Shown here: one piece after another, positions 9,196-24,235 of the stretch
Numbering within the stretch: position 1 is the first letter of the stretch
How the letters are laid out: each line of letters opens with the position of its first letter
NCBI GenBank assembly: GCA_902514095.1
Contig: CABXPS010000005.1
Span: 7,735 to 39,734, forward strand
DNA from: an uncultured marine group I thaumarchaeote
GTDB taxonomy: Archaea > Thermoproteota > Nitrososphaeria > Nitrososphaerales > Nitrosopumilaceae
Length of the DNA: 32,000 nucleotides
Direction of reading: 5' to 3'
The notes under the pieces: model-generated
What the model saw: only the letters and a program-made list of their open reading frames with translations
Told to the model about the DNA's origin: nothing
Database searches by the model: none
Position numbers and translations under genes: made by a program

Positions 9196-9285
9196 AATTG
9201 CTTAACAATACATAATGAAGGATTATTGCAAATAAATCTTAGTTAAAAGTAAGTTAAAATTCAAGCAAATTGTTTCGATTCATGT

Positions 9286-9359
9286 GGGTTCGTAGCCTAG
9301 CCTGGTAGGGCGATGGTCTCCAAAACCATCGATCGTCGGTTCAAATCCGATCGGGCCCA
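9286..9359 (+). tRNA. tRNA-Trp (anticodon CCA)
   Basis: Hand-folded cloverleaf: acceptor GGGTTCG/CGGGCCC, anticodon stem ATGGT/ACCAT with loop CTCCAAA, T-arm GTCGG-TTCAAAT-CCGAT, discriminator A. No encoded CCA, no intron. Confidence 0.9.
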
Positions 9360-9363
9360 TTTT

Positions 9364-13019: not shown

Positions 13020-13259
13020 TTATGTTTGACCTTCAATACCCATAAGGGTTAAAGTAGAACGAATCTTTTCAATTTTTCTGATTTTCCAGGTAATTGTTTC
13101 TCGTAGTTTTTCAACGGTATCAGATTCAATCTTGGCCAAAATATCGTATGCACCAAAAGTTCCATGAACTTCTTTTACACCTTCTAAACCCTTTAGTTGC
13201 CCAATAATAGCTTCTTCAGAACCTAGTTCACAGTTTATTAAAACATAAGCTGTTGCCAT
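13020..13259 (-). CDS. Stand-alone Lrp/AsnC-type ligand-binding (RAM) domain protein
   Basis: 79 aa (AYVLINCELGSEEAIIGQLKGLEGVKEVHGTFGAYDILAKIE...) matching the beta-alpha-beta-beta-alpha-beta RAM-domain pattern, with no HTH. Confidence 0.6.
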   Translation of the reverse strand: MATAYVLINCELGSEEAIIGQLKGLEGVKEVHGTFGAYDILAKIESDTVEKLRETITWKIRKIEKIRSTLTLMGIEGQT

Positions 13260-13301: not shown

Positions 13302-13721
13302 CTAGTCTTGTGAAATTTTTAGGATCTCATCCCAAATAGCTTTAGGTACAGGCATTACAGATAATCTTGAAATTCTAACAAGTTCCCAATCTTTAAATTT
13401 TTTATTATTTTTTATTTCTGCTAATGTCACAGGTCGTTTCAAAGTTTTTTTATATTTTACATCAACAACAATAAAACGTTCAACATCTTCTTTTGGATTA
13501 GAATATGGTTTTGAAGTAACTTGCATTATTCCTACTACTTGTCTTTCATCACCAGTATGATAAAACAAAATCAAATCACCGGATTTCATTTCTCTCATAT
13601 GTTTTAGTGCTAAATTATTATGAACACCATCCCAAATAGTCGTCTTATCTTTTTTTAGTTGTTCAAAATTATATCCTCTAGGTCCACTAGGTTCTTGTTT
13701 TGCTAACCAATAGTTTACCAT
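13302..13721 (-). CDS. EVE (PUA-like) domain protein; I prefer the internal ATG at 13721 over the track start at 13802
   Basis: MVNYWLAKQEP...WDGVHNNLALKHMREMKSGDLILFYHTG... is the canonical EVE-domain N-terminus. The 27 extra codons of the track ORF run into a G+C-rich structured region (next feature). Confidence 0.65.
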   Translation of the reverse strand: MVNYWLAKQEPSGPRGYNFEQLKKDKTTIWDGVHNNLALKHMREMKSGDLILFYHTGDERQVVGIMQVTSKPYSNPKEDVERFIVVDVKYKKTLKRPVTLAEIKNNKKFKDWELVRISRLSVMPVPKAIWDEILKISQD

Positions 13722-13771
13722 TACAATATTTTGTTTAGGACTAACGTTTAATGGTTTTTTAATTAATTTGA

Positions 13772-13937
13772 TGTTCCCCGGTTCTGACTCGCAAAATTTC
13801 ATTGGACATAGCCATACACCTCATTACGTTCTGAAACCGGGGTTGCCCATAATGTAGCACACCTGGGTGAATTAGAAATCATTGGTATCAATTACGATCA
13901 GCGTCATCCTATTCCGTGTGTGTGCCTGCTCTTGGGC
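13772..13937 (-). ncRNA. Candidate structured sRNA, two hairpins; the 3' hairpin is H/ACA-guide-like
   Basis: This is a G+C-rich island in AT-rich intergenic DNA. On the minus strand, hairpin 1 pairs GCCCA (13933-13937) with UGGGC (13845-13849), has a 7+7 internal loop, and pairs GCACAC (13920-13925) with GUGUGC (13857-13862). Hairpin 2 pairs CCCCGGUU (13835-13842) with AACCGGGG (13776-13783), has a 6+6 internal loop, then an upper stem CGUAA/UUGCG. Next comes U-GA-GG (13819-13823) opposite CC-AAU-GA (13799-13805), which is a K-turn pattern. An ACA at 13772-13774 lies 15 nt after the pocket. Confidence 0.45.
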
Positions 13938-14018
13938 GTTTAATTGTATTAGATATCCTACTAAAAAGTATTGAAAATATGAAATAATTTTAAATTAAAT
14001 TAACGTGTTAATTAATTT

Positions 14019-15662
14019 CTAAATGAATTTAAGAATGGAATCAGATAGTGAAATTTCAAATCCAACTACAGGTACACGAATTTTATAATTATCAATAATT
14101 TTAGAATTAATTTCTCCAATAATTCCAATAGTATTTCCATTAAAAATAATATTTGCACAATGACCATCCTCAAAACTGGAATTAACTGCAGTTTTTGTTT
14201 GAATTTCAATTCCAAATCCAATTTTTAGTACAGTTTGTAATACAGATTTAATTTCAGTAAAATTTGCATCCTTATGAGCAATGATAGCAGACAGATTAGT
14301 TTTTTCAGAAACGGGATTATCCAAATTAAAAATACCTCCAGTTTCGAACATTTTTTGAGGGTAAGATTCATGTATATTTCTTGAAAGGTTTTCAATCAAT
14401 CCAGGAAGTATAGAATCACGTAAAATAGTATGTTCCTGACTTTTTGAGTCTAGTACAGAAATAATATTTTTAGAATCCCTATTAGTCATATCATACAATA
14501 CACGTTTACTACTCAAACTAGAATTCAATGCTTCAAGAAATCCTAGTCCAATCATTGTTTGATTTAGAGATTTTAATTGAAAAGATATTGGATTAATTTG
14601 ACCAAGAGTTTGAGATGGAGATATTGTAGGCTCAAAATTTTGAATTCCATAACCTAAAGCAACTTCTTCAACTAAATCCATTGGACCAAAAATATCAAAT
14701 CTATATGCAGGAATTGTACAAATAATATTTTTTCCTTTAGATAATGCATTTAGTCTAGATTTTTTTAATGAAGAAATAATTTTTGAAGTATTGAGATTTA
14801 AACCAAGAGTTTGATTAATCAAAGAAGAATCAACAATCATTTTCTTTTCTTGGAGTTTAGGTGAAGAATTTTTTGCTCCAGAAATTTGAATATGTTCTAA
14901 AGTGAATCCAGCACTTTGTAAAATAGTTGCAACAACTGAAAGCATATCTTCAGCATCATCTTTATTGATTCCAGTTACTTCAACAAAGAGATTTTTAGTT
15001 TTAGTAGTAACAGTAGTTATTGCAGCATTAATGATTGGGGGAAAAGAAACTGTTTTTTCATTTGTATCAATAATTATTGGTACTTGAGAAGATTGTCCAA
15101 GAAGAGGACCATAATCTTTACCTGTTTCAGTATCGGCGATAATTTCAGAGATTGAAAGTACTTTTTCAGAATTTAATGGAATAAATTTATGATTTCTAGA
15201 TACGGTGGTATAGATCAAAGGAAAAGAAATTTTGTCTAAATCATGTATTCCAATAGAAGATTTTTTTCTTTTTCTTCCAATTCCAAAATGAAGATCCTCT
15301 TGCATAGTCATTAACTGTTTAATGGTTTTATCATCAATTTTGCCATTTTTAGCAATAATTCCAGTCACAAATGGACGAATTTTGGAAACAGTTGGTTTGA
15401 CAGATATACGATAATTTTTAGATTTTTTGATAGCTAGTTTTACTGAACCTGTTTTAATTCCAAGCAATCCTTGCAAACCAAGTGCAACTCCATAATCAGT
15501 TGAATAATCTGGACGGTTTGGACTATATTCAATTCTAACTAAATCCTTATCTTCAGATTCAATATCTAATCCTAGAAAGGGTAATGAATCAGAAATTTGT
15601 TTTTTAGAAACCTTACCAATTAGTTTTTGGAGACGAGAATAAGATAATTCAATTACTGGCAT
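14019..15662 (-). CDS. pheT: Phenylalanyl-tRNA synthetase beta subunit
   Basis: 547 aa, archaeal-type PheT (MPVIELSYSRLQKLIG..., B3/4 and B5 domain pattern). It overlaps pheS by 10 nt. Confidence 0.85.
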   Translation of the reverse strand: MPVIELSYSRLQKLIGKVSKKQISDSLPFLGLDIESEDKDLVRIEYSPNRPDYSTDYGVALGLQGLLGIKTGSVKLAIKKSKNYRISVKPTVSKIRPFVTGIIAKNGKIDDKTIKQLMTMQEDLHFGIGRKRKKSSIGIHDLDKISFPLIYTTVSRNHKFIPLNSEKVLSISEIIADTETGKDYGPLLGQSSQVPIIIDTNEKTVSFPPIINAAITTVTTKTKNLFVEVTGINKDDAEDMLSVVATILQSAGFTLEHIQISGAKNSSPKLQEKKMIVDSSLINQTLGLNLNTSKIISSLKKSRLNALSKGKNIICTIPAYRFDIFGPMDLVEEVALGYGIQNFEPTISPSQTLGQINPISFQLKSLNQTMIGLGFLEALNSSLSSKRVLYDMTNRDSKNIISVLDSKSQEHTILRDSILPGLIENLSRNIHESYPQKMFETGGIFNLDNPVSEKTNLSAIIAHKDANFTEIKSVLQTVLKIGFGIEIQTKTAVNSSFEDGHCANIIFNGNTIGIIGEINSKIIDNYKIRVPVVGFEISLSDSILKFI

Positions 15663-21704: not shown

Positions 21705-21779
21705 AAGTAAAAACGTAAACTTATCCTATTTAAATCCACCCAGCAGTCTGAAATTCATCATTGATCGGAGAATAAAAAG

Positions 21780-21853
21780 TGGACCGGACGGAATTTGAAT
21801 CCGTGACCCCCCGCGTGCAAGGCGGGTATACTACCAGGCTATACTACCGGCCC
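21780..21853 (-). tRNA. tRNA-Ala (anticodon UGC)
   Basis: Hand-folded: acceptor GGGCCGG/CCGGTCC containing the G3:U70 alanine identity pair, anticodon stem CCCGC/GCGGG with loop CTTGCAC, T-arm ACGGA-TTCAAAT-TCCGT. Confidence 0.88.
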
Positions 21854-22488: not shown

Positions 22489-22521
22489 ACTTAAATGACT
22501 CTTGCCTAGAGATTTCTTCGT

Positions 22522-22596
22522 GGGCTCGTAGCTCAGCTTGGCTGGAGCGTTCGACTGATAATCGAAAGGTCATGTGTTCGAATCACATCGGGCCCA
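22522..22596 (+). tRNA. tRNA-Ile (anticodon GAU)
   Basis: Hand-folded: acceptor GGGCTCG/CGGGCCC, anticodon stem TTCGA/TCGAA with loop CTGATAA, T-arm ATGTG-TTCGAAT-CACAT. Confidence 0.9.
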
Positions 22597-22602
22597 TTGT
22601 TA

Positions 22603-23980: not shown

Positions 23981-23985
23981 AATAG

Positions 23986-24070
23986 TGGAGGAGGTGGGAT
24001 TCGAACCCACGAACTCCTGAAAGATAGGATCTTAAGTCCTACATCGTTGGCCAGGCTTGATTACTCCTCC
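23986..24070 (-). tRNA. tRNA-Leu (anticodon UAA), class II with long variable arm
   Basis: Hand-folded: acceptor GGAGGAG/CTCCTCC, anticodon stem TAGGA/TCCTA with loop CTTAAGA, a 14-nt variable arm, T-arm GTGGG-TTCGAAT-CCCAC. Confidence 0.9.
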
Positions 24071-24161: not shown

Positions 24162-24235
24162 GCTTCGATAGCTCAGTCTGGTAGAGCGTTACATTGGTAA
24201 TGTAAAGGTCACGGGTTCAGATCCCGTTCGAAGCT
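24162..24235 (+). tRNA. tRNA-Thr (anticodon GGU)
   Basis: Hand-folded: acceptor GCTTCGA/TCGAAGC, anticodon stem TTACA/TGTAA with loop TTGGTAA, T-arm ACGGG-TTCAGAT-CCCGT. Confidence 0.9.

Follow-up and report, generated by a model that had tools for sequence, protein, structure and literature searches.

A candidate two-hairpin box H/ACA guide RNA gene between pheT and an EVE-domain gene in Nitrosopumilaceae

The element between pheT and the EVE gene

The stretch of DNA analysed here, the window, comprises 32,000 nucleotides (nt) of an uncultured marine group I thaumarchaeote of the family Nitrosopumilaceae (contig CABXPS010000005.1 of assembly GCA_902514095.1). On its minus strand lie pheT, the gene of an EVE-domain protein and, between the two, an element of about 168 nt that is very probably the gene of a two-hairpin box H/ACA guide small RNA (sRNA). 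The interval had been singled out in a first-pass annotation as a G+C-rich island, and its G+C content is indeed 0.41–0.43, as opposed to about 0.2–0.35 in the DNA around it. Relatives were collected by a PheT-based search that kept one genome per species and gave 80 Nitrosopumilaceae loci with PheT proteins that are 75–98% identical. The element is found just 3' of pheT in 79 of these loci, at 83–99% identity over about 170–190 nt, and the sequence of the remaining locus ends inside pheT. Moreover, the order pheT, sRNA, EVE, all on the same strand, is kept in 78/78 loci examined, with the EVE start 43–60 nt downstream of the sRNA in nearly all of them. In the alignment of relatives conservation sets in abruptly at a GCCC and collapses right after the last ACA, and a covariance model built on 71 distinct sequences has a single match in the window (minus strand, 13769–13937; 189.9 bits, E = 1.4e-52). 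Read on the minus strand from 13937 to 13769, the sRNA is 5'-GCCCAAGAGCAGGCACACACACGGAAUAGGAUGACGCUGAUCGUAAUUGAUACCAAUGAUUUCUAAUUCACCCAGGUGUGCUACAUUAUGGGCAACCCCGGUUUCAGAACGUAAUGAGGUGUAUGGCUAUGUCCAAUGAAAUUUUGCGAGUCAGAACCGGGGAACAUCA-3'; its 5' end at 13937 is predicted, and its 3' end, the ACA plus about 3 nt, is approximate. The model detected no second copy in 99 thaumarchaeal ribosomal RNA (rRNA) loci. A weak match of the model in a 4.3-kb IMG/VR contig (L202:322–464, minus strand; 14.8 bits, E = 0.003, G+C 0.57) is probably due to chance. Viral contigs were also scanned with two patterns made of invariant sRNA segments; each gave one match, which lay in coding-like DNA, was missed by the covariance model and was dismissed as chance.

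A hand-curated consensus structure of 43 pairs, scored over the 71 sequences, has 97.7% of its cells paired and contains nine compensatory pairs (104 compensatory cells). None of 500 shuffles matched the observed pairing and compensation, and sliding the partners by one to three columns, as a control, lowered pairing to 27–49%. Covariation is strongest in the GGCAYRC/GYRUGCU stem, in the apical C-stem extension of hairpin 2 and in single pairs of the other stems. Compensatory changes across Nitrosopumilaceae, for which the first-pass annotation had proposed to look, do therefore occur. The fold also distinguishes the strands. Read as the plus strand, only 85.9% of the cells are paired, because 360 G.U cells turn into C.A; this points to the minus strand as the one transcribed, as had been argued earlier from a single G.U pair. 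The minimum-free-energy fold recovers both hairpins, at -47.5 kcal/mol.

We infer that the sRNA is transcribed from a promoter of its own. When the upstream regions of 80 loci are aligned with the GCCC as anchor, a promoter-like block, TCAATGGTTTTTAGTAGGA, emerges, and in it a TATA-like TTTTTA (13967–13962) ends 25 nt before the predicted first base of the sRNA, the G at 13937. The archaeal TATA-to-start distance is about 26 nt, and because the conserved block fits this distance the predicted start is placed at the G of the GCCC (GCCCAAGAG). The block persists in the loci where an insert of 270–335 nt parts pheT from the sRNA. Its conservation runs past TTTTTA into GTAGGA and exceeds what a minimal archaeal promoter needs.

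Downstream of the terminal ACA, an element resembling a B recognition element (BRE) and TATA box, CAAAAACCATTAAAC, lies about 24 nt upstream of an EVE ATG at 13721, which suggests that EVE has its own promoter and, because the distance to the start codon is so short, a separate and nearly leaderless mRNA. In the window, however, an open reading frame (ORF) also extends from 13802 to 13302, and the 3' part of the element could on that account be read as 27 N-terminal codons of a longer EVE protein. The evidence speaks against this. Of 71 loci, no more than 7 have an in-frame extension that stays open as far as a conserved Met (MVNYWLAKQEPS); the match to the Pfam EVE domain sets in at residue 3 of the shorter protein, and the region shows covariation of the RNA type. 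What reads as an ATG at 13802 is the AUG of AAUGA, part of the kink-turn (K-turn) of hairpin 2. It is thus well supported that EVE starts at 13721 and not at 13802, and that, as the first-pass annotation had concluded, the 27 codons are non-coding; we give the coding reading practically no chance. In some relatives the EVE start codon is TTG or GTG.

Alternatively, the element might act in cis, as a structured 5' leader that regulates EVE, for example through L7Ae bound to its K-turns, or as part of the pheT 3' untranslated region. Its invariable position between the two genes, with EVE so close downstream, would suit such a role, and K-turns are also used in L7Ae autoregulation. Nevertheless, the conserved TATA-like block parts the element from pheT, even across the insert, EVE has a BRE/TATA-like element of its own after the ACA, and a regulatory leader needs no two invariant ACA boxes correctly spaced from two pockets with invariant strands. 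A cis-acting element is thus very unlikely. The EVE domain has a PUA-like fold, and it is with its PUA domain that Cbf5 recognises the ACA box; the strict linkage of the sRNA to the EVE gene could reflect a functional tie.

Architecture of the two hairpins

Both hairpins of the proposed guide (Table 1) carry a lower stem that closes a large internal loop (the pocket), an upper stem, a K-turn and a single-stranded ACA. Invariant across the relatives are both ACA triplets, the four GA dinucleotides, the CC and GG of the K-turns, the third base of the bulge (U) and both 3' guide strands (in 71–75 sequences), the 5' guide strands being partly invariant; the tandem G.A pairs of the K-turns are presumably sheared. 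In published archaeal H/ACA RNAs, the upper stem (H2) has 5–6 bp, at most one bulged base and 8–10 nt on either side up to the distal G:A, which lies 9–10 nt from the base of the stem, and the ACA lies 14–16 nt from the last guide base that pairs, beside the target U (PMC2377435, PMC7075261). The ACA-to-guide spacing of both hairpins falls within this range of 14–16 nt, and the 3' side has a single bulge.

For hairpin 2, the first-pass annotation had described a lower stem (CCCCGGUU/AACCGGGG), a 6 + 6 internal loop (UCAGAA/AGUCAG), a K-turn (U-GA-GG/CC-AAU-GA) and an ACA (13774–13772) at a distance of 15 nt from where the 3' strand of the loop has its top, and all of these are found in place on the minus strand. 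The lower stem (8 bp) is paired in 100% of cases and includes one compensatory pair (UA to GC, in two sequences). The upper stem that had been proposed, CGUAA/UUGCG, exists as well, but across relatives it is paired in 77.1%, whereas a register shifted two nt toward the K-turn, with six pairs and one bulged base, reaches 89.0% and shows compensatory change (GU/GC/UA); both registers are compatible with the published geometry (PMC2377435, PMC7075261). The distance from the pocket to the G.A pairs does not vary, being 6 nt along the 5' strand and 9 nt along the 3' strand. In the extension of the C-stem above the K-turn, CGUA/UAUG becomes UUUU/AAAA in relatives.

The 5' half is a second complete H/ACA unit, inside an outer GCCC/GGGC helix. 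It had been described as a hairpin made of GCCCA/UGGGC and GCACAC/GUGUGC that has no obvious ANA box or K-turn. Both helices are real, but the supposed upper stem is in fact the lower stem of hairpin 1, and neither box nor K-turn is missing: there is an ACA at 13855–13853, and a GA at 13905–13904 goes with CC-AAU-GA at 13885–13879. The lower stem (7 bp) is paired in 99.8% of cells and has three compensatory pairs (GC/CG; CG/UG/UA; GC/AU/GU), and the upper stem (AUUAGGAU/UUUCUAAU) is paired in 98.6%, with one compensatory pair (AU/GU/GC) and, in the clade of the window, one A.A mismatch. On the 5' strand 8 nt separate the pocket from the GA, which agrees with an upper stem of 5–6 bp if the lowest two pairs open. 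The apical pairs (A-U, U-A, C-G, G.U/G-C, plus G-C) are all kept at 100%, and bases 1 and 2 of the K-turn bulge are A or G. The ACA directly abuts the covarying stem, and the four bases after it are variable.

According to the earlier parse of this half, a pocket formed by AAGAGCAG/UACAUUAU lies between GCCC(A)/(U)GGGC and GCACAC/GUGUGC, in an H/ACA-like domain devoid of box and K-turn or in a purely structural one. The existence of both helices and the invariance of AAGAGCA are in keeping with this view. However, in the 3' strand of the loop it is precisely the ACA beside the covarying stem that is invariant, the UUAU remainder varies, and the linker in which an ANA box would be needed is variable too (AA, AC, UA, AG, G, AAA or UAA). 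Moreover, above the covarying stem come another internal loop with invariant strands, (A)NACGG and UCACCCAG, and a K-turn that is conserved, and AAGAGCAG/UACAUUAU has no rRNA site above the null, the best match falling in a variable region of the large-subunit (LSU) rRNA. We thus hold this parse to be highly improbable and describe the 5' half as hairpin 1 enclosed by the outer helix. The latter, from the very 5' end to the hinge, is a candidate extra helix; its sole changes are two C-to-U transitions that give wobble pairs, with zero compensatory changes. For the invariant leader AAGAGCA, no rRNA complement exceeds the shuffled null.

Every structural feature of H/ACA guides that could be tested is present and either conserved or covarying in the 71 sequences, which supports the identity proposed by the first-pass annotation. 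Rfam, in which it had suggested a search for H/ACA families, gave none at threshold: at gathering thresholds the whole window returned only five tRNAs, and no archaeal H/ACA family was matched. In a permissive search the sole match of the sRNA was an H/ACA family, SNORA62, on the minus strand. A CRISPR-repeat match, also from the permissive search, was set aside as chance. A box C/D sRNA, which would have terminal C (RUGAUGA) and D (CUGA) boxes, internal C'/D' boxes and 12-nt guides, was also considered and rejected, there being no terminal C/D pairing and no Rfam match, and the CUGA at the apex of hairpin 1 in the window being CGAU in most relatives.

Some observations weigh against an H/ACA guide. 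All Rfam scores stay below the family thresholds (for SNORA62, 23.2 bits against 80, E = 0.022), and every sampled relative comes from one family, Nitrosopumilaceae. The folding energy of the single sequence is unremarkable (z = -1.6 for the minus strand and -0.5 for the plus strand), and the canonical H/ACA design includes neither an outer helix such as GCCC/GGGC nor an invariant leader such as AAGAGCA. A search for PheT homologues aimed at distant Thaumarchaeota did not widen the sampling, since among the matches listed all were at least 91% identical.

Table 1. Features of the pheT–EVE interval, in 5' to 3' order on the minus strand
Feature	Window coordinates	Strand	Remarks
pheT	14019–15662	minus	flank of the sRNA
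Promoter-like block TCAATGGTTTTTAGTAGGA (in the window, TCAATACTTTTTAGTAGGA)	13956–13974	minus	at least 70% consensus in most loci
Whole sRNA, about 168 nt	13769–13937	minus	conservation with sharp edges; covariance model
Candidate outer helix P0, GCCC 5' terminus	13934–13937	minus	pairs with GGGC 13848–13845; 98.6% kept
Single-stranded leader AAGAGCA	13927–13933	minus	invariant in 75 sequences
Hairpin 1 lower stem, 5' strand GGCACAC	13920–13926	minus	pairs with 13862–13856
Hairpin 1 pocket, 5' guide strand ACACGG (consensus AGACGG)	13914–13919	minus	ACGG 13917–13914 invariant
Hairpin 1 upper stem, 5' strand AAUAGGAU	13906–13913	minus	pairs with UUUCUAAU, 13878–13871
Hairpin 1 K-turn, non-bulged GA	13904–13905	minus	invariant G46 A47 (alignment A1 numbering)
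Hairpin 1 apical C-stem hairpin GAUCG-UAAU-UGAUA	13886–13903	minus	100% kept
Hairpin 1 K-turn, bulged strand CC-AAU-GA	13879–13885	minus	CC, third bulge U and GA invariant
Hairpin 1 pocket, 3' guide strand UCACCCAG	13863–13870	minus	invariant in all sequences
Hairpin 1 lower stem, 3' strand GUGUGCU	13856–13862	minus	covaries with the 5' strand
Hairpin 1 ACA box, also start of H-box-like hinge ACAUUA	13853–13855	minus	A96 C97 A98 invariant
Hinge UUAU-GGGC-AA	13843–13852	minus	UUAU and AA linker vary in sequence and length; GGGC conserved
Hairpin 2 lower stem, 5' strand CCCCGGUU	13835–13842	minus	pairs with 13783–13776
Hairpin 2 pocket, 5' guide strand UCAGAA	13829–13834	minus	A119, A121, A122 invariant; rest varies by clade
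Hairpin 2 upper stem, 5' strand CGUAAU	13823–13828	minus	pairs with 13797–13792 (better-supported register)
Hairpin 2 K-turn, non-bulged strand GA-GG	13819–13822	minus	invariant
Hairpin 2 apical C-stem extension UGUA-UGGC-UAUG-U	13806–13818	minus	three compensatory pairs
Hairpin 2 K-turn, bulged strand CC-AAU-GA	13799–13805	minus	CC, A, U and GA invariant
Hairpin 2 pocket, 3' guide strand CGAGUCAG	13784–13791	minus	invariant
Hairpin 2 lower stem, 3' strand AACCGGGG	13776–13783	minus	pairs with CCCCGGUU
Terminal ACA box	13772–13774	minus	invariant; neighbouring bases vary
BRE/TATA-like AAAAAACCATTAAAC of the EVE gene	13746–13760	minus	conserved in most of 76 loci; marks the 3' limit of the sRNA
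EVE-domain gene, 139 residues	13302–13721	minus	corrected start ATG 13721–13719; Pfam EVE E = 7.9e-41

Predicted targets in 23S rRNA

The window carries no rRNA. A thaumarchaeal 16S signature led to 120 metagenome contigs, several with full 16S–23S operons, so that the target rRNAs come from metagenome contigs and not from the same genome; complement scans covered 16S and 23S, and E. coli 23S numbering was transferred by alignment. One locus with the 16S signature (L088:1279–1632) has an archaeal RNase P RNA beside the 23S gene and a tRNA in the 16S–23S spacer; the thaumarchaeal operons that we used have neither.

In hairpin 1, ACCCAG (13868–13863) is a perfect complement of 23S C2579–U2584 and ACGG (13917–13914) is a perfect complement of C2590–U2593, extended to C2594 by the GACGG of most relatives. 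This peptidyl-transferase centre (PTC) site, with 6 + 4–5 bp, was the top match of the hairpin in flexible scans of three LSU sequences. Counting 14 nt back from the ACA leads to a guide C opposite U2585, which would therefore place U2586 in the active-site position, and we somewhat favour this uridine, which adjoins the PTC, as the target of hairpin 1. The first-pass annotation had proposed to test the pocket strands of hairpin 2 for complementarity to rRNA or tRNA. In the 3' strand, GAGUCAGA (13790–13783) is a perfect 8-nt complement of 23S U1915–C1922, in helix 69, and the longest perfect complement in 16S and 23S in all the rRNA sets tested. The 5' strand adds only 2–3 bp to the 6–8 bp of the 3' guide. 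U1921 would lie 14 nt and U1923 16 nt from the ACA, both within the spacing rule, and we tentatively propose either or both of these uridines, on the 3' strand of helix 69, as the target of hairpin 2, while regarding the assignment as open to doubt. The helix 69 and PTC segments are invariant in 21–22 thaumarchaeal LSU copies.

In the clade of the window, the two pocket strands of hairpin 2 (13829–13834 and 13784–13790) both contain UCAGAA(C), and either could pair with UCUGA in helix 69. Other clades, with AGAAAA or AAAGAA in the strand, do not have this repeat. A site of 12–13 bp for hairpin 2 in one LSU sequence (L113, at about position 2464) was rejected, as the region differs in other thaumarchaeal LSUs and the guide is invariant. 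Also rejected were U1915 and U1917 of helix 69, in the UNUN mode of Haloferax, which the guide strands do not fit.

Both assignments have evidence against them. The PTC score of hairpin 1 is only at about the 90th percentile of shuffled maxima and is not significant alone; the pairing needs a C.U mismatch beside the target, followed by G.U and A.A before the 5' guide, and the window's own clade has two mismatches in it. For hairpin 2, a perfect match of at least 8 nt occurs in 15% of shuffles, so that this score alone is not significant either, and the 5' guide varies between clades though helix 69 is invariant. Hence, the sRNA could be a genuine H/ACA guide of which at least one target is a different one, in 16S rRNA (GGUGAA-U-A-CGUC, near the 3' minor domain), in a tRNA or in another RNA. 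The 16S site fits hairpin 1 with 6 + 4 bp in canonical UN geometry, the scores of the proposed targets lie within the upper range of the shuffled controls, and according to published work H/ACA target prediction is unreliable and one pocket may serve several sites (PMC2377435, PMC11077068). In contrast to the PTC site, however, the 16S site requires a spacing to the ACA that is about 3 nt longer, beyond the 14–16 nt, and the upper stem must open, whereas the proposed 23S sites obey the spacing rule, are invariant in thaumarchaeal LSU copies and fall in the very regions that the analogous RNA of Haloferax modifies, with the hairpins in the same order. A different target is thus unlikely, albeit by no means negligible as an alternative. 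That the best complements of the two pockets fall in two classic archaeal H/ACA target regions, and in the order found in the Haloferax RNA sR-h45, is unlikely to be due to chance, although the argument is a post hoc one. The literature searched contained no modification data on Nitrosopumilaceae rRNA.

In the explanation that we favour, the sRNA would be transcribed, on the minus strand and from a promoter of its own, as two H/ACA units joined by a short hinge. By analogy with known guides, L7Ae would bind each K-turn, and Cbf5, together with Nop10 and Gar1, would bind each lower stem and ACA; the strands of the pocket would pair with rRNA on both sides of a uridine, which Cbf5 would isomerise to pseudouridine. 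In hairpin 1, the 3' guide on C2579–U2584 and the 5' guide on C2590–U2593 would direct the reaction to U2586. In hairpin 2, the 3' guide on U1915–C1922 would direct it to U1921 and/or U1923.

Neighbouring features and comparison with known guides

Farther out from the sRNA lie pheS and a gene for a small AsnC-type protein. Just downstream of EVE (13020–13259, minus strand), a stand-alone Lrp/AsnC ligand-binding-domain protein of 79 residues is encoded (Pfam PF01037, E = 1.7e-10). The window has five tRNA genes, at 9285–9360, 21779–21853, 22521–22597, 23985–24070 and 24162–24235 (Trp, Ala, Ile, Leu and Thr), and its other G+C-rich intergenic patches, considered as further non-coding RNAs, turned out to be tRNAs or short ORFs. 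The insert of 270–335 nt between pheT and the promoter block of the sRNA, absent from the window, is present in 32 relatives (L002:5651–5946, L023:5645–5980 and L039:5645–5914, for example, and 29 other loci). It was likewise considered as a second non-coding RNA and rejected, as it is A+T-rich and resembles a small ORF on the opposite strand that begins ATGGAAATCAAAAA and probably encodes a small protein of the membrane.

Few archaea are as abundant as the ammonia-oxidising Thaumarchaeota. An alignable family of 71 distinct sequences and a working covariance model now allow the sRNA to be annotated in Nitrosopumilaceae genomes, a recurrently mis-annotated EVE start codon is corrected, and rRNA pseudouridines are predicted at the PTC and in helix 69. 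The sRNA joins a known class of RNA and is in this sense a solid but unsurprising addition: specialists expect H/ACA guides in these archaea because the organisms encode Cbf5, and a cbf5 gene is present in Nitrosopumilus maritimus (PMC2738675). Three features are mildly new: an outer helix that comes with an invariant leader, K-turns with extended C-stems, and a two-hairpin RNA of the classic form in this lineage. The lineage is related to the Crenarchaeota, from which the guides reported are all single-hairpin or atypical, and one study reported two-hairpin H/ACA RNAs only for Euryarchaeota (PMC11077068). No H/ACA guide of Nitrosopumilus or of Thaumarchaeota was found in Rfam 15 or in the literature searched, a coverage that is incomplete and makes an earlier description possible.

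Like the H/ACA small nucleolar RNAs of eukaryotes, the sRNA follows the order hairpin, hinge, hairpin, ACA, and its hinge ACAUUA fits ANANNA. Unlike in those RNAs, including SNORA62 (RF00091), the pocket sequences are different and there are K-turns, the L7Ae-bound K-turn being an archaeal feature; the sRNA is not a member of the SNORA62 family. At 13799–13822, the weak SNORA62 alignment matches the K-turn strands UGAGG...CCAAUGA to identical letters at the apex of the 5' hairpin of the human RNA, which could be a K-turn relic or a coincidence.

The H/ACA sRNAs of Pyrococcus (Pab21, Pab35, Pab40, Pab91, Pab105, Pab160 and Pab19) have a short H2 below the K-turn, as does hairpin 2 with its six positions, an ANA 14–15 nt from the target, a 3' guide that weighs more than the 5' guide, at most one bulge in H2 and one to three hairpins per RNA, a plan that the sRNA matches (PMC2377435). 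In contrast, there is no detectable sequence similarity to these RNAs, the stems of the sRNA are A+U-rich, and the C-stems of its K-turns are extended into small hairpins instead of forming K-loops.

In Sulfolobus islandicus, the atypical H/ACA RNA sR148 modifies the equivalents of 1917 and 1923, essentially with its 3' guide only, and its target U2066 corresponds to yeast pseudouridine (psi) 2266 and to E. coli U1923 (PMC11077068). Helix 69 of yeast carries psi2258, psi2260, psi2264 and psi2266; because psi2258 and psi2260 are the equivalents of 1915 and 1917, psi2264 and psi2266 correspond to 1921 and 1923. Hairpin 2 resembles sR148 in that it is predicted to aim at the 3' strand of helix 69 through its 3' guide, which supplies 8 bp, the share of the 5' guide being negligible, whereas the sRNA as a whole, with its two hairpins, is of the classic and not of the atypical kind.

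The closest parallel in layout is sR-h45 of Haloferax volcanii (Hv), a two-hairpin H/ACA RNA in which the 5' hairpin guides psi2605 and the 3' hairpin guides U1915 and U1917 of helix 69, in UNUN form (PMC7075261). Since Hv 2603 is equivalent to 2619 of H. marismortui (PMC7075261), Hv 2605 corresponds to E. coli 2586. The two RNAs share two stem-loops, each with a K-turn and an ANA or ACA box, an upper stem with additional bases on its 3' side (SL1 in Haloferax; PMC7075261) and, as predicted here, a 5' hairpin directed to the equivalent of E. coli U2586 and a 3' hairpin directed to helix 69. They differ in that the hinge of the sRNA is of about 10 nt, whereas the spacer of sR-h45 has 56 nt with a potential pseudoknot, in the uridines concerned (U1921/U1923, on the 3' strand of helix 69, instead of U1915/U1917, in the loop) and in the outer helix between the 5' end and the hinge, with the invariant leader, which only the sRNA has. 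Judged by layout and target regions, from the published description of sR-h45, the sRNA may work in the same manner. It is rather improbable that the sRNA is the thaumarchaeal counterpart of sR-h45 and represents an ancient, pan-archaeal coupling of PTC and helix 69 modification, to which the leader, kept close to the hinge by the GCCC/GGGC helix, might add a third, non-canonical function. The leader could possibly provide auxiliary pairing with the CUCUU of 23S (1922–1926), which adjoins the helix 69 site, offsetting the weak 5' guide, or act in rRNA folding. The resemblance to sR-h45 hints that guides for the PTC and for helix 69 may have been combined in a single RNA before the haloarchaea arose.

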